64,000 nt of DNA from Escherichia phage SKA64. A program made the translations under genes and the position numbers. This document shows positions 27,491 through 64,000 of the stretch, one piece after another (the first letter of the stretch is position 1; the number at the start of each line of letters is the position of its first letter). Location: the sequence record OM362897.1; one strand, 5' to 3'. The notes below the pieces were generated by a model. The model saw nothing but the letters and a program-made list of their open reading frames with translations. It did no database searches and was not told the DNA's origin.

Positions 27491-27520
27491 TCTTATTGAT
27501 TTATAAAGAGTTTTTATAAA

Positions 27521-27553
27521 AGAAAAGGGAACCTTTGCTGGTTCCCTTTTTTA
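27521..27553. terminator. bidirectional rho-independent terminator between convergent gene blocks
   Basis: Stem GGGAACC/GGTTCCC with 6-nt loop, flanked by A-run upstream and T-run downstream; functional in both orientations. Confidence 0.65.
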
Positions 27554-30229
27554 TTAGTCGTAATATTTCAAACCTGTAATGAACTTCGATCCCCAATCCG
27601 CACTTGCGGCGGTGAACGTCAACATCCAAGTTGTAGCTGTACCAGTGAAGACCTCTCGTTGCACAGTACCATCAGTGTGGTAAATGTCCACGCCAGTATG
27701 TCCATTCTTAGGAATAGTGAAGGTAACAGCACTGGTAGTGTCTCGTGCATAAGAACAAACAAATGGTGTCCCCGCCCAAACTGGATTTGTCATATCGCCC
27801 ATCTCAAGCTGTGGAACCCAAGCAATAAGACCTGCCGTACCATCTCCTGCGAAAGTGTCTGATCCACTTGCATTCAAAGCTATAATCTCATAGGTTATAG
27901 ATGCTTGTTTGGCAACTGTCACTTTGTGTAGAATTACACGATACCAACCATTCCCCATATCGATTATGTTTGCATCTGCACCTGTAAATGTTCCAGCTAC
28001 AAGATCATAAGTCCCTTCGTTAATCTCATCTCCTGAAGTCAATTTGAGTTTCACTTTAGTGATCCCATCTGGCTTCAAGAATACGGATGCCGCCCAGTGC
28101 TTACCTGCTGTAATATCAGAAGCTGTATTCACTGCTGATAAAATATGTTGTCCTGAAGTTGTAGAAGGTGTTAACTTGTAAGTGTTAGCTGTAGTTCCAA
28201 CCGGAGAGTTGATTGTTGATGCTGTGACTGTCAAGTTCGTCTTCAACCACGGGGAAGCTGTTGTCAAGTTATTGTTGATAAAGATATGTGTACGGTTGGC
28301 TGCTACAACACGTCTACCTTGTGGAGTTGTACCAACATATTCTAAAGGTGCTACGGGAGCAGAACTCTCTGTAGGTACAAGGATATCTCCAGAAGCCCTG
28401 GCATAACGGTTACTCCTGTTGACCTTTACATCCGCCGGAATAGTTTCTTGCGTCAAATCATAGTCCATCACAATCACCACAGCATTCACTGTGAGATAAG
28501 AACTATCTTCGGCAGTTACCACACCTTGATAAGTTGCTCTACAACCGATACGACAACCTCCATCAGCAACCGCTGTAATAACGCCTGTAACGGGGTCAAC
28601 TGTTGCTACCGTAGGGTCATTAGAGAAATACTCAACAACCATACCAGGTAAGCTTGCTGCTCCTGTTGGCGTTATTTCTGCTACCATTGTTTGTGTTGTT
28701 CCTACATCCATCGCAGATAAGCTAGGAGTGTAAACGCTCAATGTTGAAGCATATCCTCCAGAGGTATCTGATAAAGTTGTTCCTTCGGCGTTTAAGGCTG
28801 TCATACCTGCATCAAAACCACCTTCTGCATGGAAAGTCATTAAACCAGTAGATGATATTGTCATGTTTGCAGGGGCAGAAGAAGTGTATTTAATATTGAA
28901 AAGTTTACCTCCTTCTGGGCTAACAGAATGTGTCAACTGTTTAGTTCCACCTACAATACAAATTCCTAAAGAATCTGTAGTTAAGCCAGTTGCCAGAATA
29001 TCACCCGTAATCACGGAGCTTGCTATTGGTGTGAATTTATTATAGTTTAGACCGCTATTGAACAGATACGAGGCTTTCCCATCTTTCCAAATACCGGAAT
29101 AATACATATCTCCATTATAAACGAAAAAGGTTCCTTGATAACCTAATTGGTTAGTAACATCCATATTCAGCGTATGAACGCTTGTGAGCTTGTTTATATC
29201 CCAAGAACCCACTCCTTCAGGTTTAACTGGTTTTCCCACTTGGAGTGGATCTCCGCTCGCAGAATCATACCCCAAACCTAAGTTTGCAGTGTAGTTCTTA
29301 CCAATAGCCCACAAGGAATTATTGATCCCAACGAAAAAAGAGTGGCGGCTTGGTGGAAACTTCCATGTTGAGAAACCTGCTGCAAAGGTATCCAGTTTAG
29401 TGTAGGTTGTTTCTGTATTAGACCTAACATATAAGTAGTTTACTGTACCCGTGCCACCGGAGGTATCTCCTACAACTATTGTCTGGGAAACTGTATTGAT
29501 GTAATCTTTGACATACACTGTTTCAGTAGCGGATATCTTAGCATTGACAAAAGCTGTTGTTGTGTTATTATTACCTGCTAAACCTTTACTAGCTCCACAA
29601 ACACGCAAGGTTCCCACATTGTTGACATAAGAGCATTGGTTGTAACCTGCATCAAAAGCAACTGCTGCACTTGTTATCTGACGAGGAGTAGAAACTTCGT
29701 TAGTAGTACTTGCACCTAAACTACCTACTGTGTTTTGACCAGATCCGTAAAGAACACCACTATTCATTAACCAGAGAGTGTTGTTATATCCTCCCTTAAC
29801 CTCTTTAAGATTGGCTAAAGAGATAGTCCCTGTTATTACAGATGGAAAGCTGGTCCAAGTAGTTACACATGCGTCCGTACCACCTGCTGCTATAGATCCT
29901 ACCAATCCTGCTGTCAATCCTGAATATTGCCATCCCCCACTGTTAGTTTTAATAACAAAACAACGATCTGCGGTAAACACATCCGCTACTACAGTAGAAG
30001 CTAAGTGGAAATTATTGAATCGTGCACTACGAGTTCCATCTGCAATTTCACCAAAAAGGTTTGCGCCTTGAGTAAACAATCTACCATCATTAAGCAAAAT
30101 TGCTAAACTGCTATTAGAATTACCAGCATTATCTGGGTAATCTAAAGTGATTACTTTTTTAACAATACCCGCTGGCAGAGGAACGACACCAGTGCTGGTC
30201 ATAATAGTAAATATTGGAATTGGAAACAT
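27554..30229 (-). CDS. tail fibre protein (891 aa)
   Basis: Last gene of late operon; Gly/Thr/Ser/Asn-rich beta-rich composition; GGAGGG RBS. Confidence 0.45.
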   Translation of the reverse strand: MFPIPIFTIMTSTGVVPLPAGIVKKVITLDYPDNAGNSNSSLAILLNDGRLFTQGANLFGEIADGTRSARFNNFHLASTVVADVFTADRCFVIKTNSGGWQYSGLTAGLVGSIAAGGTDACVTTWTSFPSVITGTISLANLKEVKGGYNNTLWLMNSGVLYGSGQNTVGSLGASTTNEVSTPRQITSAAVAFDAGYNQCSYVNNVGTLRVCGASKGLAGNNNTTTAFVNAKISATETVYVKDYINTVSQTIVVGDTSGGTGTVNYLYVRSNTETTYTKLDTFAAGFSTWKFPPSRHSFFVGINNSLWAIGKNYTANLGLGYDSASGDPLQVGKPVKPEGVGSWDINKLTSVHTLNMDVTNQLGYQGTFFVYNGDMYYSGIWKDGKASYLFNSGLNYNKFTPIASSVITGDILATGLTTDSLGICIVGGTKQLTHSVSPEGGKLFNIKYTSSAPANMTISSTGLMTFHAEGGFDAGMTALNAEGTTLSDTSGGYASTLSVYTPSLSAMDVGTTQTMVAEITPTGAASLPGMVVEYFSNDPTVATVDPVTGVITAVADGGCRIGCRATYQGVVTAEDSSYLTVNAVVIVMDYDLTQETIPADVKVNRSNRYARASGDILVPTESSAPVAPLEYVGTTPQGRRVVAANRTHIFINNNLTTASPWLKTNLTVTASTINSPVGTTANTYKLTPSTTSGQHILSAVNTASDITAGKHWAASVFLKPDGITKVKLKLTSGDEINEGTYDLVAGTFTGADANIIDMGNGWYRVILHKVTVAKQASITYEIIALNASGSDTFAGDGTAGLIAWVPQLEMGDMTNPVWAGTPFVCSYARDTTSAVTFTIPKNGHTGVDIYHTDGTVQREVFTGTATTWMLTFTAASADWGSKFITGLKYYD

Positions 30230-49633: not shown

Positions 49634-50643
49634 TATTTCTCCTTAGTCATTATTTCAGACACGGATACACATTCCACTTCAGTAACCCACTCTTTACCTT
49701 CTTTATCTCCGTTGTGAGAAACAGAAACTACTTTAAATGGACCATCATAATCTCGGCTTTTTAACCAGATTGTTTTTTCTGGTAATATTGCACCATTCAT
49801 TTGGCATTTGAATTTAACACCATCTGTAGGTTTCTTTGCCTTCTTAGAGGATTTGGTAACTTTTTTAGTAGGTTTTATATCGTTGTGGAATGGTTCTGGA
49901 CTTCCTATCAGACCAGTTTCAGGGCTAATATAGGCGCTACGTGCACTAGACATTTGTGAACGAGGAGTGACATAAACAGACCCATCTTGTATTGACACAT
50001 TGTGATCAATACTTTTACAAATATGTTCTAGGTAATGTGAAGTGTTTCCACACATAGCTGTTGCTGAAGATAAGGTTTGATCATTATCTACGTGTATATT
50101 ACCTTCTGTAGTTCCTAAATCCTTTACCAAATCTGTCACAACACGTTTGATTTTAGTTCCTTTTGGATAACTGCGGCTTGTTCTTGCTTCTGCAATGTTA
50201 ATACCGCCATCCAAACAGTGTAAAGTGGTTTTCCTGTCTACCGAGTCAAAAGTATCACTAACCCACTGGATAGTTCCTTTGAAGATCATAACCAACTCTT
50301 CACCTTCGTATCCTACCGCTAAAGCAACAGCCAAGTTATTTCGGATACCACGGTTTATATAGTTAACAGTATCATCCGAAAGGTTATAAACTACAATCTC
50401 TGCTTGGTTAGGATCTTTGTTATTATCTTTCTTAATACTGAAGGTTATTTGATGGTCTTGCAACAAATACAAATTAGAAGAGGATTTTTCTGTTGTCCCT
50501 AACTTGGTATCCAAATCTACTGTAGATTTAAATGCCGAGTTCTTAGTTCTCTTCTGTATTGTGTTTGTGGCAGAACCAATTAATAATTTGTATGCCCTGT
50601 TTAAATTAGGGGCAGGAGCTTTTGTATACTCTCTTTCTGCCAT
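49633..50643 (-). CDS. baseplate hub-like protein (336 aa)
   Basis: Position after tape measure. Confidence 0.35.
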   Translation of the reverse strand: MAEREYTKAPAPNLNRAYKLLIGSATNTIQKRTKNSAFKSTVDLDTKLGTTEKSSSNLYLLQDHQITFSIKKDNNKDPNQAEIVVYNLSDDTVNYINRGIRNNLAVALAVGYEGEELVMIFKGTIQWVSDTFDSVDRKTTLHCLDGGINIAEARTSRSYPKGTKIKRVVTDLVKDLGTTEGNIHVDNDQTLSSATAMCGNTSHYLEHICKSIDHNVSIQDGSVYVTPRSQMSSARSAYISPETGLIGSPEPFHNDIKPTKKVTKSSKKAKKPTDGVKFKCQMNGAILPEKTIWLKSRDYDGPFKVVSVSHNGDKEGKEWVTEVECVSVSEIMTKEK

Positions 50644-50652
50644 ATTATCTCC

Positions 50653-51066
50653 TTACGCCTGATTAGGTTTGTTATCAATATAAACCAATACAAAACGTTT
50701 ATCTCGACCTGTAGTTGTATACCCAGGACGACCATTAATCTTAACTGTATCTACTATATACAATTGACCATCTGGCACACTTTCAAGATATTTATAAGGT
50801 TTAAGAAGATCTAAACCATTTGTAACTTTGAAACTTATACTTGGATCATCTCCAGATAATCCAATCTGACATTGCCAAGACTCGTCCCTAGTGTTCCACC
50901 TTAAACGAATGTCATAATCAACTCCATCCAATGTAACCGTATATGTTTGATCAGGATACTCTTCAGTTTTCAGGTACCATGCAAAATAAGTAGAATGGTC
51001 CTCTAGATAAACTGCACTGTAGCCTGTATTACTTGTAGACCTTGTTGTTTTAGAATAAGTTGTCAC
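50653..51066 (-). CDS. tail structural protein (137 aa)
   Basis: Position. Confidence 0.4.
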   Translation of the reverse strand: MTTYSKTTRSTSNTGYSAVYLEDHSTYFAWYLKTEEYPDQTYTVTLDGVDYDIRLRWNTRDESWQCQIGLSGDDPSISFKVTNGLDLLKPYKYLESVPDGQLYIVDTVKINGRPGYTTTGRDKRFVLVYIDNKPNQA

Positions 51067-51068
51067 TA

Positions 51069-51770
51069 TTAACCTCCGTTGTTTGTTGGGGTATTAGTAG
51101 CTTCAGCAGTTCTTACTGTAATATCTGACTTAGGCCCATTCGAAGCAACTTGACCTTTCACATCACCACCCGTCGATTTATTTGGTGCTGTTTTTACAGC
51201 AATAGCATTAGTAGTGGCCTTAGAAACGAGACGGATTTGTTCAAACTCTAAATCAAATTGCATAGCAAATTCAGATTTATAATCATACGAATAACCTTTG
51301 AGAATAACATTTTCAAAAGTTCTGTGTTCTGTCAAAAGAACTATTGGTTGTCTTGACTCAAATATTTGATCTAGATATTCTATTGCTTGAGAAATCCTTG
51401 CACCATTTACACCTGCACTGTATAATTGATCTCGCATAAGCCGAATTGGTGTTTCGGTAATTATACCTGAAAGTTTAAATCTGTTGTTTTTTATTTGAAC
51501 GTGGTCACTTACATCCGATCCTGATTCTACTGGAAAACTTGTAACATCTGCCTCACGAGTTACACCTACTTCAGGGACCGAATCGAAAGTAATTGCTTTA
51601 AAGTTTTGAATGTATTGATCACTTGAACTATTATAAACACTTGCTAAAATGCAGAAACCATTATCACCCTTTACAGTAGATGCCGAGGTATTTTTATTCT
51701 CGGTAGAGTTGATTTCCTGTTCTGCCTTATAGACGGCTCTCACCGACTGTTGTGGAGTCATTGCTGCCAT
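51069..51770 (-). CDS. tail structural protein (233 aa)
   Basis: Position after tape measure. Confidence 0.4.
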   Translation of the reverse strand: MAAMTPQQSVRAVYKAEQEINSTENKNTSASTVKGDNGFCILASVYNSSSDQYIQNFKAITFDSVPEVGVTREADVTSFPVESGSDVSDHVQIKNNRFKLSGIITETPIRLMRDQLYSAGVNGARISQAIEYLDQIFESRQPIVLLTEHRTFENVILKGYSYDYKSEFAMQFDLEFEQIRLVSKATTNAIAVKTAPNKSTGGDVKGQVASNGPKSDITVRTAEATNTPTNNGG

Positions 51771-51829
51771 GATAACCTCGTAGTAATGATAATGCCAAAA
51801 GGAAGATGCAAGATCTTCCCATATTGATT

Positions 51830-51859
51830 ATTGTAACACATATAGAAACTTCGTGTCAA
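51830..51859 (-). promoter_or_regulatory. sigma70-like promoter on minus strand (TTGACA-18-TACAAT)
   Basis: Intergenic, just after the tape-measure terminator. Confidence 0.4.
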
Positions 51860-51865
51860 GGGAAA

Positions 51866-51890
51866 CGAAAAAACCCCGCCGAAGCGAGGT
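51866..51890 (-). terminator. rho-independent terminator after tape measure gene
   Basis: Minus-strand RNA stem CCUCGC/GCGGGG (one G-U pair) with UUCG loop followed by TTTTTT. Confidence 0.55.
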
Positions 51891-51896
51891 ATTTTA

Positions 51897-53885
51897 TTAA
51901 CCACCAGTGTTAGATTGTCCACTTAGAGTTGAAAGAGACAAACGTTGGAAAATACTATTTCCGCTATTTTGAATTCTTGCATCAAGAATATTTCCAAACT
52001 CTGAAGAAGGGCTGATCGTAACTTTGATAAGATCACTTGGTATTGCTACCGTATTCTCAACAACAGGTTGATTACGAGCCAAACTTACGTTAGGTGTATA
52101 GGCTGATTCACGTAAATCTTCAAGAGGATTACCAAATCCAAAAGCACGTGTCCTTGTTTGTTCTCCTCTCCACATACGACCAATATCTTGTGTATCAATA
52201 CCTGTTAAATTGTACAACCAATCTGCTACAGGATTGCTGTCTCCACTTTGCGTTGCCTCGTATGCTTTTTGTGCCATAGATTTATTAGGATCTGTGTTGT
52301 CTCCAAATGTATCTGGGAATGTTTCTTTAAGCCAATTGGTAAAAGATCCGAAACCATCTCCCAATTCTTTAGCAAAACCTCCTAATTGAACTGTTGTCTT
52401 ACCGAGTTCTTCACCTAAATCTTTGGCAAACTGATCTAGCACTTTAACGTTATCCAGCCAAGAATCATCTTTAGGTAAGGCTTTCACAAAACCCTCTAAG
52501 AAGTGGTTCTGCATACCTTGACCTACAAGCTGAACTGTTGCAGCAAAACGAGTAAACTCTTTAGAAGCATCTATTTGTTCTTGAGTTAATGTTGCACCTG
52601 TTCTTTGAAGCATTTTCAATACTTCATTATACCCTTCGCCGTTTTTACTAAACATACGTTGGTAGTGCATAAGGTCATCACCAAGGTTTTCAAGAAGTCG
52701 CCCGATTTGAGCAGAGTTCATACCTCGACGCTCACCTTCATTAACAGTAGCCTGAATAAAAGCTAAAGGATCGTTCTGTAAAGGTTTAAGCTGTTCTGGA
52801 TTCCATCCAAACAAGTTCATAATGTCATTTATGCCATTATCACCGCCTTTCCACTTCCCTTCTTTCTCATTCCATTTTGAGGCTAAAACTGTATTACCAA
52901 GACGTTCACGAACGTCTTTAATATTATCTATTGACTTAATAATATTTGCAGAGTCTACACCGTTCTGTTCACCCCAAGCTGTCATTGCCAAAATAGCGTT
53001 GGCGTTTGTCTGAACGTTTTCAGCACCACGACTTACAAGTTTAATTCTTTCGTTAGTATTCATCAACGTGTTACCAACTACAGAACCACCTGCAAACAGC
53101 CCAGCACCTATCAAAGAGGATGCAATCATGCGTGGATTAAGACCTGCTGCACCTTCTTTTAATTGTCCATATCGACGATCACGATCACGTTTTTGTTGAG
53201 CTAATTCACGCTTACGGTTGCGTTCTATATCTCTAAGTTCACGATTTCGCATACGTATACGCATTTTAGCTTCTGCTTCTAGCTCTCTACGAATACGGCG
53301 ACGACCGCGAACCTCGTCTTCTATTTCGGCATTCTTTTCACGATGAGATCTGCGTAAGGCATCTAACTGGTGAGCAAGAGCTTGGTTCATACGTTGAAGA
53401 GTTATTTCACCCTTTTTGTATTGCTCTACAGCTTTACCCATAACGTCCCTAGCTTCTTGCATAGCACCAGGACTGGCTTTACTAAATGCTCTTGCTCGGT
53501 AGTTAAAGTTCTGCAAACGAAGATTACCTAAATCTTCCCTACGTGCTGCTGCTTTAGCTTCGCGTTCAGCAGCTTTACGAGCTTTTTCTTCTTCTCTTCC
53601 TTGCGGGGTTTTAGGAGTTCTAGGTCTACCAGATCCGCCTACAGGAGCACCCGCTCCAGCGGGAGTAGGTGCTCGCATAGGTTTTTGACTTTGAGTTTGA
53701 GCTTTCTTAAGTTCACGCTCAATCTCTTTCATTTGTTGTCTAAACTTGGTCATGTTCATAGTGGGTTGCATTTTATTTGCAAACTTCTGAACACTCAACA
53801 CGGCATCTTTTGCTTCCTTGAGACTGTTCTTGTCCACCTTAAACGTAACCACGTTACTAATTTTGGAGGCGTTAATTTCTAACAA
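51897..53885 (-). CDS. tail tape measure protein (662 aa)
   Basis: Immediately after frameshifted chaperone pair; long Arg/Glu/Lys coiled-coil region. Confidence 0.7.
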   Translation of the reverse strand: MLEINASKISNVVTFKVDKNSLKEAKDAVLSVQKFANKMQPTMNMTKFRQQMKEIERELKKAQTQSQKPMRAPTPAGAGAPVGGSGRPRTPKTPQGREEEKARKAAEREAKAAARREDLGNLRLQNFNYRARAFSKASPGAMQEARDVMGKAVEQYKKGEITLQRMNQALAHQLDALRRSHREKNAEIEDEVRGRRRIRRELEAEAKMRIRMRNRELRDIERNRKRELAQQKRDRDRRYGQLKEGAAGLNPRMIASSLIGAGLFAGGSVVGNTLMNTNERIKLVSRGAENVQTNANAILAMTAWGEQNGVDSANIIKSIDNIKDVRERLGNTVLASKWNEKEGKWKGGDNGINDIMNLFGWNPEQLKPLQNDPLAFIQATVNEGERRGMNSAQIGRLLENLGDDLMHYQRMFSKNGEGYNEVLKMLQRTGATLTQEQIDASKEFTRFAATVQLVGQGMQNHFLEGFVKALPKDDSWLDNVKVLDQFAKDLGEELGKTTVQLGGFAKELGDGFGSFTNWLKETFPDTFGDNTDPNKSMAQKAYEATQSGDSNPVADWLYNLTGIDTQDIGRMWRGEQTRTRAFGFGNPLEDLRESAYTPNVSLARNQPVVENTVAIPSDLIKVTISPSSEFGNILDARIQNSGNSIFQRLSLSTLSGQSNTGG

Positions 53886-53905
53886 AGTATGTTCCTCGTG
53901 TTGGA

Positions 53906-54654
53906 TTAAACAAGTTTCTTAAACAAATCTGACATTTTATTTGTCTGGTTTTGATGTTTTCTCTTTATTGAAGTGTCTTTAACATACATGGCTTCAACAT
54001 ACTCTTCGTATGTTAAATACTCATATAGTTTTAAAAGATAATCTACACCGTAGTTATCCAATGTTTTCAGTGTTTCCGAGGTATCTTTAACGACTTTGCA
54101 AAGAATAACCTCATACCACTTCAAAGTAAGGGTTTTCGTTGCTGTGTCGATAGCATGTTCAATCGCAGGTGTTAATTTGCTGCTAAACTCGTCATCGCCT
54201 GAAGCTGTGTGAACAGTTTTCCGAAACCTCGTTTGAAAAAAGGGCCGTAGTTTACCTCCAGAACTTTAGCAGTAAGATCTAACACTAGTTCTGGGTGAGC
54301 CATAAATAATTCATCAAAATTTTCTGCAACGTTATAACCGTCTTGAGTATAAACCTCATCTAAAATTTTACGCAAAAAGACCGTTAAATTCTTTTCTTCC
54401 AAACCTGCAAAAAGTTGGATCAGTGCCATAGCAATACGTGACTCAAGGTCTTCGTCTGCGGACATTGTTGCTGTGCTATACATAGTCATAGGAACAACCA
54501 GAACACTACCCAATTCTGGAATCCTGTCAAACACTTTAGATGGACTCCACTTCATAATACGGAAAGTAACAGATCTGTTTCCATCTAACGGAATCTCAAC
54601 TACTTCTTCTGGTCGAGCATATTTTTGAATTGTGTTATCTTGTTCTTGTGACAT
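53906..54654 (-). CDS. tail assembly chaperone, -1 frameshift-extended product (GT-like)
   Basis: -1 frame is open from the slippery site through ORF 53906..54124; manual translation across the junction gives ...YGPFF-QTRFRKTVH...TLTLKWYEVILCK... Confidence 0.45.
54172..54654 (-). CDS. tail assembly chaperone (G-like, 160 aa)
   Basis: Located between tube and tape measure; acidic. Confidence 0.55.
   Translation of the reverse strand: MSQEQDNTIQKYARPEEVVEIPLDGNRSVTFRIMKWSPSKVFDRIPELGSVLVVPMTMYSTATMSADEDLESRIAMALIQLFAGLEEKNLTVFLRKILDEVYTQDGYNVAENFDELFMAHPELVLDLTAKVLEVNYGPFFKRGFGKLFTQLQAMTSLAAN
54235..54241 (-). other. -1 programmed ribosomal frameshift slippery heptamer T_TTT_TTC
   Basis: Zero-frame codons CCT TTT TTC (P-F-F) about 20 codons before the chaperone stop. 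Confidence 0.5.
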
Positions 54655-54671
54655 ATTTTCCTCTCTAATGA

Positions 54672-54697
54672 TAAAAAGGGCATTTCTGCCCTTTATT
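54672..54697 (-). terminator. stem-loop / attenuating terminator after tail tube gene
   Basis: AAAGGGCA-GAAA-TGCCCTTT hairpin followed by T-rich run. Confidence 0.5.
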
Positions 54698-54699
54698 TA

Positions 54700-55179
54700 T
54701 TATTGAATTGTCAGAGCAGAGATTGAGTTAAGGGTGCTCAAACCTACACCAACTTCATTACGCAGAAGGCTTGCATCTTTAAGACCAATAACCCATTGGT
54801 TCTCTGTAATCATTTCGCCAATAGTATCTTCAGGCTGACTTTGAATCCATCCAATCGTGCTAATGTAATAGCCACGTGGGTCTTCCAAGTAAACACTGAA
54901 CGCTACTTGACGAGTAGAATACATTGTTTGTGCATATGTTGCAAGTACTTCGTTAGCTGGAGATGTGCGTTGCAAAGACATTGTGAGTGTTCCTAAACGG
55001 TTACGACTCAAAGCTAGTGAAACGTCGCCATCAGTCCCTGAATAAGGGTTGATAATATCGTTAGATTTAGCAATAACGATTTTAGTATCAGCCGCAAAAC
55101 CCCACGGTTCCCAACCACCTAATGAAAGGATAACTTGAGATGGGTCGTAGGCCATTACGCCAGTAAGCATTTTATCCAT
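54700..55179 (-). CDS. tail tube protein (159 aa)
   Basis: Small gene between sheath-sized gene and chaperones. Confidence 0.5.
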   Translation of the reverse strand: MDKMLTGVMAYDPSQVILSLGGWEPWGFAADTKIVIAKSNDIINPYSGTDGDVSLALSRNRLGTLTMSLQRTSPANEVLATYAQTMYSTRQVAFSVYLEDPRGYYISTIGWIQSQPEDTIGEMITENQWVIGLKDASLLRNEVGVGLSTLNSISALTIQ

Positions 55180-55225
55180 TATAGATCCTCTTTATTTTGA
55201 TAACGGGGGCTTAACCCCCGCCGTA

Positions 55226-56599
55226 TTAGTTTGCAGTACGGTTAGTCAGGACGTTGACCTGAACTTTAACGTAATGGAAGAAGCCAGCGTAAACATATTC
55301 AATCTTCATCCCATCGACCAGACGAGCATTGATTTGCGCATCAGTCATATCGGCACGAGAAGGAATATAAACAATAGGTTTCAGATCGACACGCAAACCA
55401 GTCTCTTCAGAAGTAACAACTTCATTAGCGATGGAACCGTTGAGGATACCTACTTGGATCGGGTTAGCCAGAACAGCTTGTCGGATCAAAGCCAGACCGT
55501 TTGAAGTAGCACGAACACCACCACCCAGCATAGACTGTTGTTTAAACAGTGTAAACAGTGATTCTTCTGTGCGAGCTTTAAACCACAAAGCATGAACAAC
55601 ATAGTCAACAAAGAAACCGCTAACCATCAATCCATCACGATAGAACAGAGTTCCATGCTCTTTACGATAGATGTTACCGTTCTGTTGAACAATATTGTTT
55701 TCCGAAGTCTGATCCAGTTTCTCGATCTCTACACCTACCAGTGTTTTACCGTGAAGAGTAGTTAAACCAGGTTGACGAGAACAGATTGCACCAACAACTG
55801 CTGCTTCTGGGAATACAGAATCTGCATCGGTCATCCACAAAGCAAAGCAAGTGTTATTATAACCGAGGTCATTCAGTCGTTCCAGAACGTTATCTTCTGC
55901 TTTCGTTTTAATTCCAGGTTCAGAGCTAGAGAAGAAGTAAACTTTATCATTCTCTTCTACCCATGCAGCCAAAGCTAGAACATCTTCTGTTTCATGGGAA
56001 TCTGAAAGGGTCCAGAACCAGCTACTATCAATATCATGCAGAGCAGCAATATCTTCCGTAATAGCATTAGCATAGACAGTTTCTTGGGTGAAACCTGTGC
56101 TGTCAATAGAACCAAACTTACCTTCTACTGGAGTGAAAGTCATTGCAGCGCCGTTGTTAGCTACTGTAAACAGTGGGCCATAAACAAGATCTGCATTGAT
56201 CATTTCAGTCAGACCAACTACAATCTCTTGTGCAGTTGCAGTGTCATCAGCAATGAATTTAAATTCTTTTTTCTTGGTACCATTTTTGATGGTAATTGTG
56301 TAAGTTGCACTATCTTCTACGATTGGAGTTAGAGTAAAGTTTGTAACTTCACGCTTACCAACCATGACTTGATCTGGTGGGAACAAACCGTTAAACAGTT
56401 TGACTGCCATAATATACGCTGGATCATTTAATCCATAACCTGCTTCCAAAAGTGCATCGGAAGAAGAGTAATATTGAATCGCTTCGCCAGTTACGTTCTG
56501 ACCTGTAAGGATCAGGGGAATATCGAACTGGGTTTCACGAATTGATGTAGCACCATACAGTAAAGTTACGGTTGCTACCTTTTCACGAAAAGTTGCCAT
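55226..56599 (-). CDS. tail sheath protein (457 aa)
   Basis: Sheath-sized gene upstream of tube/chaperone/tape-measure order typical of contractile tails. Confidence 0.55.
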   Translation of the reverse strand: MATFREKVATVTLLYGATSIRETQFDIPLILTGQNVTGEAIQYYSSSDALLEAGYGLNDPAYIMAVKLFNGLFPPDQVMVGKREVTNFTLTPIVEDSATYTITIKNGTKKKEFKFIADDTATAQEIVVGLTEMINADLVYGPLFTVANNGAAMTFTPVEGKFGSIDSTGFTQETVYANAITEDIAALHDIDSSWFWTLSDSHETEDVLALAAWVEENDKVYFFSSSEPGIKTKAEDNVLERLNDLGYNNTCFALWMTDADSVFPEAAVVGAICSRQPGLTTLHGKTLVGVEIEKLDQTSENNIVQQNGNIYRKEHGTLFYRDGLMVSGFFVDYVVHALWFKARTEESLFTLFKQQSMLGGGVRATSNGLALIRQAVLANPIQVGILNGSIANEVVTSEETGLRVDLKPIVYIPSRADMTDAQINARLVDGMKIEYVYAGFFHYVKVQVNVLTNRTAN

Positions 56600-56633
56600 T
56601 TATGCTCCTGTTAGAAACTTAATTCCAATGAGT

Positions 56634-57293
56634 TTATTCGGTAGGGTTGTTAAATAATGATCCATTTTGATTGACTGACGAGTATTCGCCTGGAACCAAA
56701 GTAATTGCATAAACCCTGTTTAGAATTAAATCTAAAGGGATAGGATCATTGTAACTATCTCTGAATGAACGGATGTGCATGTTGATTGCTTCTATTGGTG
56801 TAGTAGCAATATCTTCAATACTCATACGAGTGTTGAACGTCATAACCATACGCGCTCTTAATTCAGTCTTATCTCCGTCTACAATTGTATTGGCTTGAGC
56901 TATATTAGAGGCTCCTAAAAAACCAAGACCTTTAGAATAGAGATGTTTGTATTTTAATTCCTCTGCACCACGGAGAGCAGCCAGAACATAGCTCATCAAA
57001 GTGGTAGGTCTTCCACGATAGGCTACAAGTTCAATCTCGTAGGTATTATCCATCTCGTAGGAATACATATCATTTTGAATAGAGCTTCGGTAAGACCAAC
57101 CTCCAGAATCGCTGGAAGTGATAATACGTAGTGCTAGGTAAGGAGTATCCGGTTTAATGAATGGCTTATCCATAACATAGACTGGCAACCCCACTAATTC
57201 TTGAAGGAAGCCACCTATATTTAAGTAGATGGCATTTTCGTATGCTTCTATTTGTTGGTAAATATTAGCCAAAGTTTCCTCCTTCTGTTCCAT
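56634..57293 (-). CDS. neck/tail completion protein (219 aa)
   Basis: Position between head and sheath genes. Confidence 0.4.
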   Translation of the reverse strand: MEQKEETLANIYQQIEAYENAIYLNIGGFLQELVGLPVYVMDKPFIKPDTPYLALRIITSSDSGGWSYRSSIQNDMYSYEMDNTYEIELVAYRGRPTTLMSYVLAALRGAEELKYKHLYSKGLGFLGASNIAQANTIVDGDKTELRARMVMTFNTRMSIEDIATTPIEAINMHIRSFRDSYNDPIPLDLILNRVYAITLVPGEYSSVNQNGSLFNNPTE

Positions 57294-57714
57294 AAGACCA
57301 GGAGTTGTTTTGATCGTCTAATATTGCAACACAGTGATGATGGACTAAGAAAGATGTTCTGGTCCAATCTTTAAGGGAATAAACAGAATACCATTTACCA
57401 TCTATCAATATCTGATCTGATAACTGTTCTGTTCCTTGTTGTAACCCCTTCATTTCTGTTTTAGTCCAGAAACTATATTGAGCCTTAGATCTGTAACCTT
57501 CAGGTAGTGCATTCAGTGTTTTACCAGATATCGGTTGTAAGCTTGCAGCTTCAATAGTAAATGGTTCATATTCTACACTACTTTCTAAGTTAGCAATAAC
57601 TGAACCAACGGCCTCTTTGTAGACTCGTCTACGACCTTGGTATTCAGTTAGATCAAGGAGAGTAAATTGATCTAGTAACACTTGTATCTCCTTTTTAGTA
57701 TACATCAAAAACAA
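57265..57714 (-). CDS. neck protein (149 aa)
   Basis: Position. Confidence 0.4.
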   Translation of the reverse strand: MFLMYTKKEIQVLLDQFTLLDLTEYQGRRRVYKEAVGSVIANLESSVEYEPFTIEAASLQPISGKTLNALPEGYRSKAQYSFWTKTEMKGLQQGTEQLSDQILIDGKWYSVYSLKDWTRTSFLVHHHCVAILDDQNNSWSYGTEGGNFG

Positions 57715-57726
57715 AGTTTATGCAAG

Positions 57727-58215
57727 TTATTTTTTAGACTTGCTTTTTGTGATTTTTGTTTCGATTGCATTTATCATGTGTGCCGTATCTATTAAGATAT
57801 GATTAGAATAGTTGCCTTTATCTTGTCGTATCTTAATTGTCACAGGAGATAAAGGACGATAACGTTGCATTGCAATCGCTTGAGCTATTCCTTCTCTAGA
57901 GGCTCTCGCTATAGGCTCAAAAACAGCTAACCCGACATTATTCATTAAGTAATTTGCAAACACCTGCTTCATCTTTTTAGCGATATCGTTCTGTGAGATA
58001 ACAGCACCATCTGTTATAAAAGGGCGAGCAGGTATGTTATTTGTTTCATTACCATATTGTTGAATAGCTGCTATTGCAGGAATAGTGAGATCTGATTCAG
58101 GATGCCTTTTGTTTGTTAAAAAACCAGCTTCGATTTGAACTTGTTCAAGGTCCATCATCTTTTTGATAATGGTTTCCCAATCTGTATCGTCACCTGGTAA
58201 GATCTCACTTTCCAT
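57727..58215 (-). CDS. head-tail connector protein (162 aa)
   Basis: Position. Confidence 0.4.
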   Translation of the reverse strand: MESEILPGDDTDWETIIKKMMDLEQVQIEAGFLTNKRHPESDLTIPAIAAIQQYGNETNNIPARPFITDGAVISQNDIAKKMKQVFANYLMNNVGLAVFEPIARASREGIAQAIAMQRYRPLSPVTIKIRQDKGNYSNHILIDTAHMINAIETKITKSKSKK

Positions 58216-58763
58216 TATTTGTCCCTACGATAAAAAGAAACAGGTCCGTAATTTCGCAAATAATTAACGTTGCGTGTATTACGATCAACACTTGCAACAT
58301 TACCAAGACCATTTACAGAGTTAGGATCACTGTTTACTCGATCAATCTCACGAGCATCAACACCACCAATAAGAACTTTACTGGTTGCTCCTCGTCCTGC
58401 CGTGCACCCAGGGATCACCATAAGACCATTTAAATAGTTATGATAGATATCTTCCCACGGAGATTTATAAGTGACTTGACCGTTGTTAAATTTAACTTCA
58501 ACTTCGACTTCACCCATCTTTTCTCTGCGGGACATAGCTCCTCCTGTTTGAGTACTGTTGTTAAGAACATCGTTGTTCCATAAATACTCTAAAACAGAAA
58601 TCAAGCTGTTCCACAATACTGCACACTTATCCTTATCTTCATTCCCTATAATATCAATCCAAGTTTGGATGATCTGAATCAGCATTGCATCTGGCAACAC
58701 TTCTTGAGAAGGGTTATAAACAAGAATTCGGATCAGTGGTGCCAACTCTACCGCATTCAGCAT
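58215..58763 (-). CDS. head-tail connector protein (182 aa)
   Basis: Position. Confidence 0.4.
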   Translation of the reverse strand: MLNAVELAPLIRILVYNPSQEVLPDAMLIQIIQTWIDIIGNEDKDKCAVLWNSLISVLEYLWNNDVLNNSTQTGGAMSRREKMGEVEVEVKFNNGQVTYKSPWEDIYHNYLNGLMVIPGCTAGRGATSKVLIGGVDAREIDRVNSDPNSVNGLGNVASVDRNTRNVNYLRNYGPVSFYRRDK

Positions 58764-58772
58764 AAGCCCACC

Positions 58773-59171
58773 TTATTTTTTACGAAGGGAACGTTTTTTA
58801 GCTGGAGTGTCTACCGCTTCTACTTTTAAAACTTCTTCTTTGATTTTTACAGGTGCATAGTCTTCGTAACTTACAAGATAGTAACCCATGTGTTCTTCAC
58901 TTGCAAAAGGATGCACAAGAATACCTGTTTCTTCTCTCAAACGCGTGAGGAAGTGAATGAAGTTTCCACCTAATGCAATACGACCATCTTTCAGATAGAA
59001 AGACATTGGTGGCGCAGATACTAATGTTTTATCAGCATCAATCAGTGGTGAAAGCGATTCGAAATCACGAATCATTTCGTGATAACTAAAGTAACGTTTC
59101 AATTCTGGGTTTGACATATCAATCTCCTCATTGTAAACTCTTATTGTAAACAGAAAAGGCTCGCCCATCAC
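58773..59171 (-). CDS. head completion protein (132 aa)
   Basis: GTG start lying inside the hairpin that follows the capsid gene. Confidence 0.4.
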   Translation of the reverse strand: MMGEPFLFTIRVYNEEIDMSNPELKRYFSYHEMIRDFESLSPLIDADKTLVSAPPMSFYLKDGRIALGGNFIHFLTRLREETGILVHPFASEEHMGYYLVSYEDYAPVKIKEEVLKVEAVDTPAKKRSLRKK

Positions 59172-59190
59172 GGACGAGCCTCTAATCTTA
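59150..59190 (-). terminator. hairpin after major capsid gene (terminator/attenuator)
   Basis: Minus-strand GGCTCG...CGAGCC stem with 11-nt loop followed by TTTTCTGTTT; loop contains GTG ATG of the next gene. Confidence 0.45.
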
Positions 59191-59201
59191 ACAGAGTTCT
59201 A

Positions 59202-60203
59202 TTAAGCCGTAGTCAGTTTAACTACCAGTTCTGGACGGGTGTTAACTGCGAGCAGCGAGAATTCAGACTGAAGCTGAATAGTGCGGTGCTGGCTGATCAT
59301 GAAGGTATACAGTTCACGAGCCTGGGTGTTAGCCAGTTCTGGAGTATCCGCAGGAGCGTAGTGCGCCTGGAACATACCTTCGATACCCATAGGCAGAACA
59401 TATGCTTCACCAGCAGGGATGTTACCGTGGATATCTTCAATGTAAGTTACACCGTTCCATTCGAACACCTGAACATCCATGTTACCGCTAAGGCGGTCAC
59501 GCAGAAGGTTAGGAGTTCCCTGGAAATACTGATATGCCTGGCGAACAAATGGAGAGTTAACCAGAGATGCGAAAAACTCACGAGAACACAGAGCTACGAT
59601 ACGGGTAGCGGTAGAGCCATCTTGTTTAGTATCGATGATGTAAGCACGAGCTTCTTGTTCGATAGTGGCTGCTGGAGAAACAGTGGTAGAAGCAAAGTCT
59701 ACAGCAACAGATTTCTGGGTAGCACCCCATTCGGTATACCAGTTGTATGCAGAGTTAGCTGCACCACCTACGCCGTTATAGGCACGACCCATAACTGCTT
59801 CTGCAAAGATTTTCTCTTTGGTTTTTGCTACGTCACGCAGAATCTGGGACATATAGCGGTTAACAACTTCAGCGTCTGTGCGCAGAGAGTCATTGATTCC
59901 TGCCATTGCAAAGCTACGGAAAGATTGAATATCTTGAGCTTTGATGTTTTTATCCAGAGGGAAGAACGGAATGCGGAACGCTTTCAGTTCTGGATTTTTC
60001 ATGGTCAGGAAGTTACGCTCACCACCACGCTCACGAGCGGAGATCAGAGCATCTTCAGCTTTTTCTTTACCGATTTCAATAGCGGTAGTTGAATGATAGT
60101 CAACACTGAACAGATTCAGGCTGGCAATCAGTGTATCAGGGGAATCCTGAAGTTCGATCATAGGGCTGAAATCTACAACCTGATCTAAAATTACTGCTGG
60201 CAT
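59202..60203 (-). CDS. major capsid protein (lambda gpE-like by size and gene order)
   Basis: 333 aa; follows portal/scaffold/decoration-sized genes; highly biased codon usage. Confidence 0.65.
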   Translation of the reverse strand: MPAVILDQVVDFSPMIELQDSPDTLIASLNLFSVDYHSTTAIEIGKEKAEDALISARERGGERNFLTMKNPELKAFRIPFFPLDKNIKAQDIQSFRSFAMAGINDSLRTDAEVVNRYMSQILRDVAKTKEKIFAEAVMGRAYNGVGGAANSAYNWYTEWGATQKSVAVDFASTTVSPAATIEQEARAYIIDTKQDGSTATRIVALCSREFFASLVNSPFVRQAYQYFQGTPNLLRDRLSGNMDVQVFEWNGVTYIEDIHGNIPAGEAYVLPMGIEGMFQAHYAPADTPELANTQARELYTFMISQHRTIQLQSEFSLLAVNTRPELVVKLTTA

Positions 60204-60224
60204 TATATTAATCTCCTATTAAAA

Positions 60225-60623
60225 TTAAGAAGTGAAAACGACTTTTTCGGTCAGTTTCAGATCATGTGTTTCCAGTGCTGCTACGCCAGCGTCATCTACC
60301 AGGGAGCCATCTTTGTAGTATACTGCAAAGCGGTTCAGAGTAAGATCACGTACGCCAACAACTGCGGTGAAAGTGTCACCTACTGCTACATCGTCAATAC
60401 CGAACAGAGCATCAGTCCAAATCAGAACTTTAGCAGCATCGGCAGCTTCAGCTTTAGCAGCTTCAGTGTTGTCAGCTTTCAGGATAGAACCAATTTTCAT
60501 GGTTGCTGTTTTAACCAGGTTAACTTCACGTACACAGTGTCCAAGGTCAGAGCTAAACACTCCACCCAGAACCAGGTGTCCGAATTCCTGGCGAGAGTTA
60601 GATAAAGTAATTCCTTTAGCCAT
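60225..60623 (-). CDS. head decoration protein (132 aa, tentative)
   Basis: Small gene immediately upstream of capsid gene as in lambda D-E order. Confidence 0.4.
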   Translation of the reverse strand: MAKGITLSNSRQEFGHLVLGGVFSSDLGHCVREVNLVKTATMKIGSILKADNTEAAKAEAADAAKVLIWTDALFGIDDVAVGDTFTAVVGVRDLTLNRFAVYYKDGSLVDDAGVAALETHDLKLTEKVVFTS

Positions 60624-60642
60624 TTAATTTAATCTCCTAAGA

Positions 60643-61758
60643 TTATTGTTTCTGGGCTTTTTTAAGTTCAGCAGCTTTCTGACTAATCAGTTCAGAAGAA
60701 GATTTAGCTACAGGTTGAGTATTGATCACATCAACACCACGTTCTGTTCCAAATTCTTTCTTAACTGCGTCCACTTCTGCACGTGCTTTTTCGAATGCTT
60801 TGACGATAGTTTCAGCGATATCTTTATTGTCTACCAGATATTTAACGAGAGCTTCAACTTTGTCTTCTTCTACGAAAGAATAGGATTTAACAACAGTTGT
60901 ATATTCTTCTTCGATACGAGCTTGTTCAGCTTTACGAAGTTCTTCTGCTTCCTGTTCTGCCTTAGCGATTTTTTCCTGTGCTTCAAGTTCTGCGGCTGCA
61001 CGTGCATCTGCTGCTGCTTTTTCTACAGCTTCAGCGATCTGTGCTTTCATCAGTTCTTGGAATTCAGCAGATTTCAGGAATTCTTCTTTGTTGATATTTT
61101 CCAAAGGGGTTTCTCCTTTATTGATTCCAGTTGTGTTTGCAGATTTATCACCTGCGGGGTTAGCCTCTGCATCCACAGAGTTTGTATTAGCTTTAGCGTG
61201 AGCTTTCACTAAATAATCTTTAACTTGACTTTGTTTCAAGGAACTCTTAACGAGATTACTCAAAGCATCGTCTAAAACGTCCTCAAAGAAATCAATGGAG
61301 ATCATTACATCACCATCAACAACTTGATAATCAGTAACACGAACAACAGGTTTAGCAACCTCTTCAACTTCAACATTCAGTCCGTCAACTTTAAAGCCAA
61401 CAGAGAACATACCGTTATCTGAACAGAAAATTGCAACGTTCGCATCGAAGTCAGCATCAATAACGTAAACCCAATCCCAACCAGCTTCAAATTTTTCACG
61501 CACTTTTTCAGAAATGCGATCCATCACTTGTTGAATATAGCTTTTACGTAACTCTGTAACATCTTCTCCCATTTTAGTGAGAGCTTCTAACTTTTCAAAA
61601 GTTATGTCTGGAGATCCGTCTGACTTAAATAAAAGGGGGGTATTGTAACCAGATGCCGCTCCACCTTGAAAATCAAAAGTGTAAGCAATATGAGCACCTA
61701 GTGACTCTTCCGTAGCTTTTCCAGAAAAGTCTACGTTAGTTAAATATGTATTTGCCAC
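60643..61758 (-). CDS. scaffolding protein (possibly protease-scaffold fusion)
   Basis: 371 aa with C-terminal Ala/Glu/Lys coiled coil AKAEQEAEELRKAEQARIEEE; between portal and capsid. Confidence 0.5.
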   Translation of the reverse strand: MANTYLTNVDFSGKATEESLGAHIAYTFDFQGGAASGYNTPLLFKSDGSPDITFEKLEALTKMGEDVTELRKSYIQQVMDRISEKVREKFEAGWDWVYVIDADFDANVAIFCSDNGMFSVGFKVDGLNVEVEEVAKPVVRVTDYQVVDGDVMISIDFFEDVLDDALSNLVKSSLKQSQVKDYLVKAHAKANTNSVDAEANPAGDKSANTTGINKGETPLENINKEEFLKSAEFQELMKAQIAEAVEKAAADARAAAELEAQEKIAKAEQEAEELRKAEQARIEEEYTTVVKSYSFVEEDKVEALVKYLVDNKDIAETIVKAFEKARAEVDAVKKEFGTERGVDVINTQPVAKSSSELISQKAAELKKAQKQ

Positions 61759-61760
61759 GA

Positions 61761-62240
61761 TTAGTCCTTCTTGACTTTAACGCCCATTGCGCCTATACTC
61801 AAACCTTTAAGAACGCCGTCTTTACGAGCTTGATATAATTCAGGGTCGTTGAATTGGATTTTAACGAGGGGAGTTCCTTCCACAACGAGTTCGTCACCAA
61901 TGTAACAATCGACTTCATTTACCCAAGCTTTAATTGGAGAAAACTTATCGGTGTTCTTCATGTGACCAAGATTACCACTAATGTTGGTAATATTCTCATT
62001 GAAGTTGTCAACCATCTTCCTGATTTCCAAATCAGACATGCGCTCTCCGTGGAGATCGTCTTCTTCAGGTGGACAATACAAGACCTCAATAACCTGCATC
62101 TTTTCTTCATCAAATTTATTTTGTTTGACTAGAGTTTCAGGTTTTTGAGATGGTATAGAATCTTGTTGGGATTCAGAATTCTCTTTAAAACCAGCGAAGG
62201 TTTTGAAGAGTTCCCACAGTGTATCTTTATTGAGTTCCAT
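61761..62240 (-). CDS. head morphogenesis protein (159 aa)
   Basis: Position between portal and scaffold. Confidence 0.4.
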   Translation of the reverse strand: MELNKDTLWELFKTFAGFKENSESQQDSIPSQKPETLVKQNKFDEEKMQVIEVLYCPPEEDDLHGERMSDLEIRKMVDNFNENITNISGNLGHMKNTDKFSPIKAWVNEVDCYIGDELVVEGTPLVKIQFNDPELYQARKDGVLKGLSIGAMGVKVKKD

Positions 62241-62275
62241 TTGAAACCTCTTAAAAACAGATATCCCATAAATCT

Positions 62276-62304
62276 TAGTCTACAGGATATTTGTTGTTTT
62301 GTCA
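62276..62304 (-). promoter_or_regulatory. sigma70-like promoter on minus strand (TTGACA-17-TAGACT)
   Basis: AT-rich intergenic gap between portal and downstream head genes. Confidence 0.4.
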
Positions 62305-62333
62305 ATAGAAAAATTAAAAAATATTAAATATTT

Positions 62334-63899
62334 TTAATTCGACAGGTTTTGTGCTGAAGGATCTAAAGCAGAAACAGTATCAGATGTTCCAGTTCCCGCT
62401 GTAGCTAAACCATCTCCTGATCGTGAAGTTTTGTCAGGCATATAGTTATCCATGAATTCAAAGAATTTCTCTTTATTGGCAACAATATCGTCAGGGATAC
62501 GATATTCAAAACCAATTTTTTCAAGGAACTCGTTAATAACTTCTGGGGTTAAAGGTATTGCACCAGAGGCTACCAACTGCTGAATAGCTTTAGCATTTAC
62601 TTCAATATCAGGATCACCCATTTCACCACTGACAAACTTAGGCATATCTTCATCAGAAAGGAAGATATTGTTTAGTCGTAGTGTTTGAGGGATTAGTTGA
62701 GAGTTTATAGCTTCTACAACAATATCTACATCTCGCTCAATAAAATGAGACAATAGTGTTTGTTTGTTGTCAGAAAGCGCAAAACTTCCTGCATCACCAT
62801 CACCCATAATCAACACACCCGCACCAAAGCGGTTATAAATATCTAGCTTGCGTTGTTTGATTAGTGCTTGAGTGTCAAACTGTTTACCCGTGCCATCAAC
62901 ACCTTGGAATACAAGATCGTATTGACGCATCACTGTGCCTTCATAAACGTCTGAAGGCAATACCATATAGGCTTGCTCACCAGAGTGCAGGTTAGCGATG
63001 TTGGCTTGGAGAACTCGAAGAGATTGTGCTTCATCCCCAGCAGGATCTAAAGATGCCCTGTTTAGAATGTCACTTGGAACCTTAAGAACTGGCATACCAC
63101 CTAAATCTTTAGATACCCCAATAACCTCAAATTCCTGAATAAGAGATTTTTCACGCCAGCTACGATATACAGCTAAAAGCGGACTAACTCCTAGTGGGTT
63201 ATTCTCTGTAATGTTGCTACCAACAAATAAAACTTTACTGAAAGGAATTTCTTTAATACCAGTTTCTAAAGTTTTATTACCTGGAGCTAACATCGTGTTG
63301 GTGATATTCTGGTTAACAGATAGAATAGAACGTCCGTCTGCCGAATATGTAAAAGGTTGAGCCATGTGAAGAGTGTCTTGTGGTCTAAAAGCCAGTTTGG
63401 TTAATCGCCAATACCCAAAGTAAGGACTTTTAGGATCTTCATCCAACTCATAAACTTTCTCTGCAAATGCAAAACCATATTGCTTATATGTCAAAAGTGA
63501 TCTAACATATTGACGTAGAGGGGCTTGCATATTGCGTAACATGTAATCAATAAACTTAGCAGCTTTTCTTGACTTTGCCGAGTTTACATTGTATTTTATC
63601 TTGAAATCAAAGAATGCTCTATCTACAAAGATATATGTAGCGTCAAGAGCAGTAGCTACATCAGGGTCTTCACCCATCTCTTTAAAAGTGCGAATACATT
63701 CTGGGAAACGAGTCTCATAAGGTTGCATGAAATTCGTAAATGCTTTGATTGAGTTTAATCCGATCGTTCCTATTTCAGGTGACAGGAGTAACGTTTTCTC
63801 TTTCTCTGCCTCTTTTGTTGGAGAGAGAGCAGCTTTATTTGCAGCACCTTTGTCCCAGTATTCTGACTTTTTAGTGTACGTTCTTTTTCCTGTTGACAC
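62334..63899 (-). CDS. portal protein (521 aa)
   Basis: GTG start with GGAGG RBS; size and position ahead of scaffold and capsid. Confidence 0.6.
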   Translation of the reverse strand: MSTGKRTYTKKSEYWDKGAANKAALSPTKEAEKEKTLLLSPEIGTIGLNSIKAFTNFMQPYETRFPECIRTFKEMGEDPDVATALDATYIFVDRAFFDFKIKYNVNSAKSRKAAKFIDYMLRNMQAPLRQYVRSLLTYKQYGFAFAEKVYELDEDPKSPYFGYWRLTKLAFRPQDTLHMAQPFTYSADGRSILSVNQNITNTMLAPGNKTLETGIKEIPFSKVLFVGSNITENNPLGVSPLLAVYRSWREKSLIQEFEVIGVSKDLGGMPVLKVPSDILNRASLDPAGDEAQSLRVLQANIANLHSGEQAYMVLPSDVYEGTVMRQYDLVFQGVDGTGKQFDTQALIKQRKLDIYNRFGAGVLIMGDGDAGSFALSDNKQTLLSHFIERDVDIVVEAINSQLIPQTLRLNNIFLSDEDMPKFVSGEMGDPDIEVNAKAIQQLVASGAIPLTPEVINEFLEKIGFEYRIPDDIVANKEKFFEFMDNYMPDKTSRSGDGLATAGTGTSDTVSALDPSAQNLSN

Positions 63900-63968
63900 T
63901 TGTTCCTCCAGTCAGGTATAAAATCGTTAAGGCAAGGCTGTATTATATACAACCTCACCTATCTAGTT

Positions 63969-63997
63969 ATAATACACTTTAAAGTGACTTTTGTCAA
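63969..63997 (-). promoter_or_regulatory. sigma70-like promoter on minus strand (TTGACA-17-TATTAT)
   Basis: Exact -35 and near-consensus -10 about 70 nt upstream of portal start. Confidence 0.5.
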
Positions 63998-64000
63998 CAA

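Follow-up and report, generated by a model that had tools for sequence, protein, structure and literature searches.

A terminator or attenuator behind the capsid gene is a familiar means by which phages adjust how much capsid protein is made relative to their other structural proteins. In phage T7, the terminator T-phi follows gene 10, where its presumed role is to raise the level of capsid mRNA and to leave the structural genes behind it to read-through. In the replicase operator of MS2 and in the early-transcript hairpin of the T4 e lysozyme gene, the codon enclosed by the hairpin is the functional start. In phage LUZ100, ONT-cappable-seq is reported to place a strong terminator right behind the capsid gene, an arrangement called "similar to T7" (PMC10134795).

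The locus considered here belongs to Escherichia phage SKA64 (sequence record OM362897.1), from which a stretch of 64,000 nucleotides, referred to as the window, was analysed. A preliminary description of this DNA had reported, behind the stop codon of the capsid gene on the minus strand, a GC-rich stem and a T-run (59150-59190), and both the position and the description of this element are correct. With a probability of roughly 85%, we regard the hairpin as a leaky Rho-independent (intrinsic) terminator on the late minus-strand transcript, which would raise head-gene mRNA relative to neck and tail mRNA. A predicted terminator is already on record at this site: phAPEC8 and Schickermooser carry an ARNold terminator over these bases in their GenBank entries, the type phage since 2012.

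Anatomy of the hairpin behind the capsid gene

Over 58700-60300, the DNA matches Escherichia phage Mt1B1_P17 with 99.9% identity and phAPEC8, which is the Phapecoctavirus type phage (Stephanstirmvirinae), with 99.6%. Judged by this similarity, the window is a phAPEC8-like Phapecoctavirus genome, in which the minus strand carries the late genes, as follows:

62334-63899 (ORF), minus strand: portal gene, first in the listed order of head genes
between the portal and decoration genes, minus strand: genes of a 159-aa and a 371-aa protein
60225-60623, minus strand: head decoration protein gene (phrog_2680)
59202-60203, minus strand: major capsid protein gene, 333 aa (Pfam PF03864 Phage_cap_E, E = 9.7e-37; phrog_29 major head protein)
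after the capsid gene, minus strand, in this order: a small gene for a 114-aa protein, two more unknown genes, a head completion protein gene (PF05521), and a neck/tail terminator protein gene (PF23961)
after the neck/tail terminator protein gene, minus strand: genes of a 457-aa putative tail sheath and a 159-aa putative tail tube protein

Major head protein is also the annotation of the capsid gene in the 99.9% identical relatives. The tail sheath and tail tube identities are putative assignments from size and position, and the phAPEC8 record lists the 457-aa and 159-aa products both merely as "putative structural proteins". The head completion ORF (57265-57714, minus strand) begins with TTG, encodes 149 aa, and overlaps the next ORF by 29 nt; phAPEC8 gives this protein as 138 aa, which leaves its start codon in doubt.

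On the minus strand, the capsid gene ends in ...ACG GCT TAA, with the stop codon at 59204-59202, and is followed by TAGAACTCTGTTAAGATTAGA GGCTCGTCC GTGAT GGGCGAGCC TTTTCTGTTT, in which GGCTCGTCC (59180-59172) is the left arm of the hairpin and GTGAT the loop, both written as DNA. The elements are:

59184-59201, minus strand: spacer of 18 nt from the stop codon to the extended stem (21 nt to the GC core)
59158-59180, minus strand: core hairpin with the arms GGCUCGUCC (59180-59172) and GGGCGAGCC (59166-59158) and the loop GUGAU (59171-59167)
59148-59157, minus strand: U-tract UUUUCUGUUU (as DNA, TTTTCTGTTT), 8 of 10 bases being U

The core stem comprises 9 bp (7 G-C, 1 A-U, and 1 G.U) closed by a 5-nt loop, and AGA/UUU pairing lengthens it to 12-13 bp (59183-59155); the core folds with -16.7 kcal/mol, the extended form with about -20.4 kcal/mol (-20.3 to -20.7). 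Folding of a 116-nt context (z = -3.0) retained the hairpin as the sole element of the centroid structure. A longer-range pairing of GAACUCU with AGAGUUU, which flanks the hairpin in the MFE structure, is lost in phiWec190 and phi92 and was treated as incidental. The U-tract UUUUCUGUUU is interrupted in the SKA64 window. Between this tract and the Shine-Dalgarno (SD) sequence of the next gene, there are two copies of the direct repeat GTTTACAAT (59151-59143 and 59138-59130, minus strand); it is not kept in phiWec190 or phi92 and is probably incidental.

In a consensus terminator scan of 50000-64000, the hairpin ranked first, with 13 pairs, 7 of them G-C. It also came out on top, at -20.4 kcal/mol, when both strands of the full 64 kb were scanned for T-rich tails preceded by a folded 36-mer, the runner-up reaching -16.8 kcal/mol. 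None of ten dinucleotide shuffles of the whole window attained its value, the margin over the best shuffle being narrow (-20.4 vs -19.7 kcal/mol), and its position and its conservation in relatives are the stronger evidence. A scan of 58800-59500 with the covariance models of Rfam 15 gave no match on either strand at E <= 1.

The hairpin is placed 18-21 nt past the capsid TAA, and its T-run ends 30 nt ahead of the conserved ATG of the next gene. Given the size of a ribosome footprint, a ribosome that terminates at the TAA should leave the stem uncovered at this distance. The element thus combines a stable GC-rich stem-loop, an adjoining U-tract, and an intergenic position on the coding strand, as an intrinsic terminator does. 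Termination in both directions was considered and rejected, since the antisense hairpin is 6 kcal/mol weaker (-14.5 vs -20.7 kcal/mol for the sense hairpin in the window) and has no T-run, and no plus-strand genes lie nearby.

Conservation and transcriptional context

For comparison, the DNA 3' of the capsid gene was inspected in phages whose capsid proteins are 23-90% identical to that of SKA64. A GC-rich hairpin with an abutting T-run follows the capsid gene in phi92, in the Klebsiella phages phi1_175008 and 05F01, and in Aeromonas phage 4L372D, and a post-capsid hairpin with a T-run is likewise found in rV5-like nomo, phiTE (where it is annotated as a terminator), Klebsiella phage VIK251, Vibrio phage 166E36-1, ICP1, and Pakpunavirus JG005. 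The stems of these 10 lineages are different or unrelated in sequence, with energies from -16 to -23 kcal/mol. The T-run is a T6 in phi92, phiWec190, and the Klebsiella phages, and is thereby stronger than that of the window. FelixO1-like TP1 (Escherichia typing phage 1), whose capsid gene is distantly related, has no hairpin in its post-capsid gap of 21 nt (locus L016, 1506-1528). A putative post-capsid terminator is accordingly widespread, not universal, TP1 alone lacking the hairpin among the phages sampled, and its position is conserved over a broad range of myoviruses whose capsid genes are of the lambda-E type.

Within Stephanstirmvirinae, the stem occurs in two versions that align in register, type A (GGCUCGUCC/GGGCGAGCC) and type B (GCCUGCCC/GGGUGGGC). 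In the stem alignment, 96.5% of the cells are paired, and the five unpaired cells all stem from 05F01, which a 4-nt loop puts out of register. Two pairs are changed on both sides (G-C to A-U and U-A to C-G) and four on one side via G.U; this covariation reflects one evolutionary split with weak statistics, and is consistent with a conserved structure, not statistically decisive. The sense hairpin is more stable than the antisense hairpin in 11/11 phages owing to G.U pairs, a strand bias that points to selection on the coding-strand RNA rather than on a DNA palindrome. This comparative picture is the strongest evidence for the predicted intrinsic terminator.

According to the proposed mechanism, RNA polymerase would cross the portal, protease, scaffold, decoration, and capsid genes before meeting the hairpin and the U-tract, where a fraction of the transcripts would stop. 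The 3' hairpin would shield the terminated head-gene mRNAs from 3' exonucleases. The element would then be an attenuator that raises the ratio of capsid mRNA over neck/tail mRNA, and the shell proteins, needed in hundreds of copies, would get more mRNA than the downstream genes. The preliminary description had likewise foreseen higher capsid output and less read-through, and a terminator-type hairpin favouring capsid mRNA would fit all the evidence together with the ARNold annotation; the part that involved the start codon in this arrangement falls away (see below).

Upstream of the head genes, strong sigma-70-like promoters were detected before the portal gene (63997-63969, TTGACA-17-TATTAT, 11/12 matches) and before the 159-aa gene (62305-62277), promoter-like matches as a whole not being above chance (31 found vs 33.3 expected). 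The sigma-70 scan returned no minus-strand promoter in the interval from the capsid terminator to the next gene; the nearest match (59111-59139) lies on the plus strand, where there are no genes. TATAAT-like AT-rich words just before the SD sequence in relatives, noticed by eye, were rejected as a promoter, being apparently too near the SD sequence and absent in 05F01. The SD sequence of 05F01 begins 6 nt past the T-run, which leaves no space for a promoter. The neck and tail genes share the same orientation and are tightly spaced. Because no promoter precedes the next gene and the neck/tail genes are co-oriented with it, termination is probably partial, and the neck/tail genes would depend on read-through. 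We infer that termination occurs and that it is leaky. For the late promoters of the rV5/phi92 group, the rV5 paper proposed a T4-late-like motif, and a possible non-sigma-70 promoter downstream of the hairpin would remove the need for read-through. The literature yielded no relevant transcriptome for Phapecoctavirus, Stephanstirmvirinae, or Vequintavirinae, and the text of the PAK_P3 ONT-cappable-seq paper contains no discussion of a capsid terminator.

A hairpin that served chiefly as an RNA stabiliser or processing block for the 3' end of the capsid mRNA, with little or no termination, would be a rival reading. Any stable 3' hairpin can protect from exonucleases, the interrupted U-tract of the window could mean weak termination, and the downstream genes need to be transcribed, yet no promoter is visible. 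A pure stabiliser, however, needs no T-run, whereas every relative retains a T-run right next to the stem, a T6 in phi92, phiWec190, and the Klebsiella phages, which makes stabilisation as the main role unlikely. Nor does this role exclude the terminator, as a terminator hairpin stabilises the 3' end as well. For the preferred reading as an intrinsic terminator, the interrupted U-tract could limit termination to a modest efficiency.

The start of the next gene lies outside the hairpin

The preliminary description had taken a GTG/ATG in the loop for the start of the next gene. Both triplets are indeed present and in frame with the downstream ORF, the GTG within the loop and the ATG reaching the first base of the stem, but they are not the start of this gene. 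The features concerned are:

58773-59117, minus strand: next gene, 114-aa protein (phrog_15130), start ATG at 59117-59115
59124-59129, minus strand: Shine-Dalgarno GAGGAG, 6 nt upstream of ATG 59117, unpaired in the centroid fold
59166-59171, minus strand: loop triplets GTG (59171-59169) and ATG (59168-59166), in frame here and the source of 131/132-aa calls

Read mechanically from the loop GTG, the ORF encodes 132 aa (58773-59171, minus strand). When this ORF was used as a tblastn query against 50,697 phage records, homologues from phi92-type phages (Justusliebigvirus), at 74% identity, aligned from query residue 19, which is the Met at 59117. A homologue search over 5.8 billion proteins found 25 clusters, 21 of which were aligned; 20 of these 21 begin at or after MS(N/T)P, that is, residue 19 of the 132-aa ORF, and the N-terminal extension is confined among them to the near-identical phAPEC8-type cluster. 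The PHROG profile gives the same boundary, residues 1-114 of the shorter protein covering positions 1-115 of the 116 of phrog_15130 (E = 6.3e-73).

The reading frame between loop and ATG is broken in phages that keep the hairpin. In DE16, where the hairpin is identical base for base, an extra T after the U-tract brings the loop TGA into frame; this indel falls within a run of T residues and may be an error of sequencing, and the cases of phiWec190 and of an IMG/VR locus (L018) are independent of it. In phiWec190, again with an identical hairpin, the distance from the loop GTG to the ATG is 53 nt instead of 54, which puts the loop triplets out of frame, and in L018, also with an identical hairpin, an in-frame TGA lies 24 nt before the ATG. 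The loops of the type-B hairpins (phi92, Klebsiella phi1_175008, 05F01, and four IMG/VR loci) contain no ATG or GTG, and six type-B loci carry an in-frame stop 15 nt before the ATG. By comparison, GAGGAG, or GAGAGGA in phi92, is found 6-8 nt before the ATG in 12/12 aligned relatives. Across these alignments, the ATG at 59117-59115 is the conserved predicted start, and the loop GTG/ATG appears incidental.

It follows that the hairpin would not lower translation of the next gene by enclosing its start, as had been proposed, the real SD sequence and ATG 59117 being outside the hairpin and unpaired in the centroid structure. The next gene would instead be translated independently from ATG 59117 with its strong GAGGAG, in an unstructured stretch 30 nt past the U-tract.

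We consider it very unlikely that the hairpin, besides terminating, sequesters a real start at GTG 59171 or ATG 59168 and so represses a 131/132-aa product. The loop triplets are in frame here, an AGAGG stands 7 nt before the GTG, and the loop ATG is used by the automated annotations of ESCO13, Schickermooser, and a RefSeq cluster of 29. Against this, all diverged homologues and the PHROG profile start at residue 19; DE16, phiWec190, and L018 preserve the hairpin with the loop triplets out of frame or stopped; and the type-B loops offer no start triplet, with six loci stopped 15 nt upstream of the ATG. Moreover, the AGAGG and the triplets are themselves inside the -17 to -20 kcal/mol stem, while a consensus GAGGAG is available 6 nt before the downstream ATG, and a stop-free stretch of 18 codons arises by chance in about 40% of cases, (61/64)^18. 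Because the loop triplets are not a functional start, the hairpin does not qualify as a start-codon-sequestering operator. Similarly improbable are two further variants: low-level use of the loop GTG/ATG on read-through transcripts, in the phAPEC8 clade only, giving a minor isoform with 17-18 additional N-terminal residues in amounts inverse to hairpin formation, or a regulated attenuator that a phage antitermination factor overrides late in infection.

The two starts are both found in existing records. The downstream ATG is annotated in phAPEC8, DE16, phiWec190, and phi92, giving 114 aa in the first three, and the loop ATG (131 aa) in ESCO13 (locus L002, 1633-2028), in Schickermooser (locus L008, 404-799), and in the RefSeq-containing cluster of 29 sequences. 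The Schickermooser CDS begins inside that phage's own annotated terminator. On the homologue and frame comparisons, the 131/132-aa form looks like a propagated gene-caller artefact. This is of value for annotation, as the gene is given 17 codons too many in numerous Phapecoctavirus records, among them the RefSeq entries ESCO13, Schickermooser, and anhysbys, and the comparison supports its correction to 114 aa.

The 114-aa protein itself shows good conservation within Stephanstirmvirinae, and its C-terminal motif VD(T/S)PAKKR is invariant. Neither Pfam nor a sequence search of the PDB gave a match, and a Foldseek search of the PDB with its AlphaFold2 model (mean pLDDT 78) returned nothing below E = 2.6. 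Its sole profile match is PHROG 15130, itself of unknown function, and the label of minor head protein given to it earlier is a guess from position.

Other hairpins in the window and comparison with known systems

It is extremely unlikely that the inverted repeat arose by chance and lacks a function, or that it acts at the DNA level, for instance as a palindrome bound by a protein: one of the ten shuffled windows (128 kb, both strands) did produce a candidate at -19.7 kcal/mol, but the hairpin sits exactly in the gap between the capsid gene and the next gene, is kept across many genera with changed yet still pairing stems, and has a G.U-based strand specificity that is a property of RNA, the absent Rfam match having also been counted against this explanation.

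The late string contains two further predicted terminators, and all three are annotated in phAPEC8:

54675-54694, minus strand: second late-string hairpin, AAAGGGCAGAAATGCCCTTT, directly after the tail-tube gene (54700-55179)
51890-51873 (within 51830-51890), minus strand: third terminator, ACCTCGC-TTCG-GCGGGGT plus a T-run, after a 662-aa gene

The hairpin AAAGGGCAGAAATGCCCTTT is flanked by an A-run and a T-run and scores on both strands. The SD sequence of the gene behind it lies about 13 nt past the T-run with no promoter, which repeats the attenuator-like layout seen behind the capsid gene. The third terminator borders on a promoter: immediately past it, a near-consensus sigma-70 promoter (TTGACA-18-TACAAT, 51859-51830, with a TG before the -10 element) precedes the gene at 51770, and 51830-51890 is a classic terminator-promoter junction that opens a new transcription unit for the genes that come next in the string. 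Elsewhere in the window, the palindrome AAAAGGGAACC...GGTTCCCTTTT (about 27515-27560) forms the second and third strongest hairpins, one on each strand (-16.8 and -16.5 kcal/mol), and looks like a bidirectional terminator, perhaps at a convergent-gene junction.

The post-capsid element holds little new biology, and its positional conservation could help to define late transcription units or to design engineered phages. Among known systems, it is closest to the intrinsic terminators recognised by ARNold or TransTermHP, with which it shares the stem-loop, the U-tract, and the intergenic coding-strand site; there is no structural difference, and the terminator is predicted here from its sequence. 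The likeness to MS2 replicase and T4 e is superficial, as it consists of an AUG/GUG in a stable loop upstream of an ORF, and the loop codon of SKA64 is not a start. With T7 and LUZ100, the element has in common a terminator after the gene of the most abundant virion protein and presumably the same role, which is an analogy, not homology. The terminators of T7 and LUZ100 act on a phage-encoded single-subunit RNA polymerase and are paired with a local phage promoter, whereas in SKA64 the enzyme is presumably the host polymerase, with sigma-70-like promoters that precede the head genes as a block.
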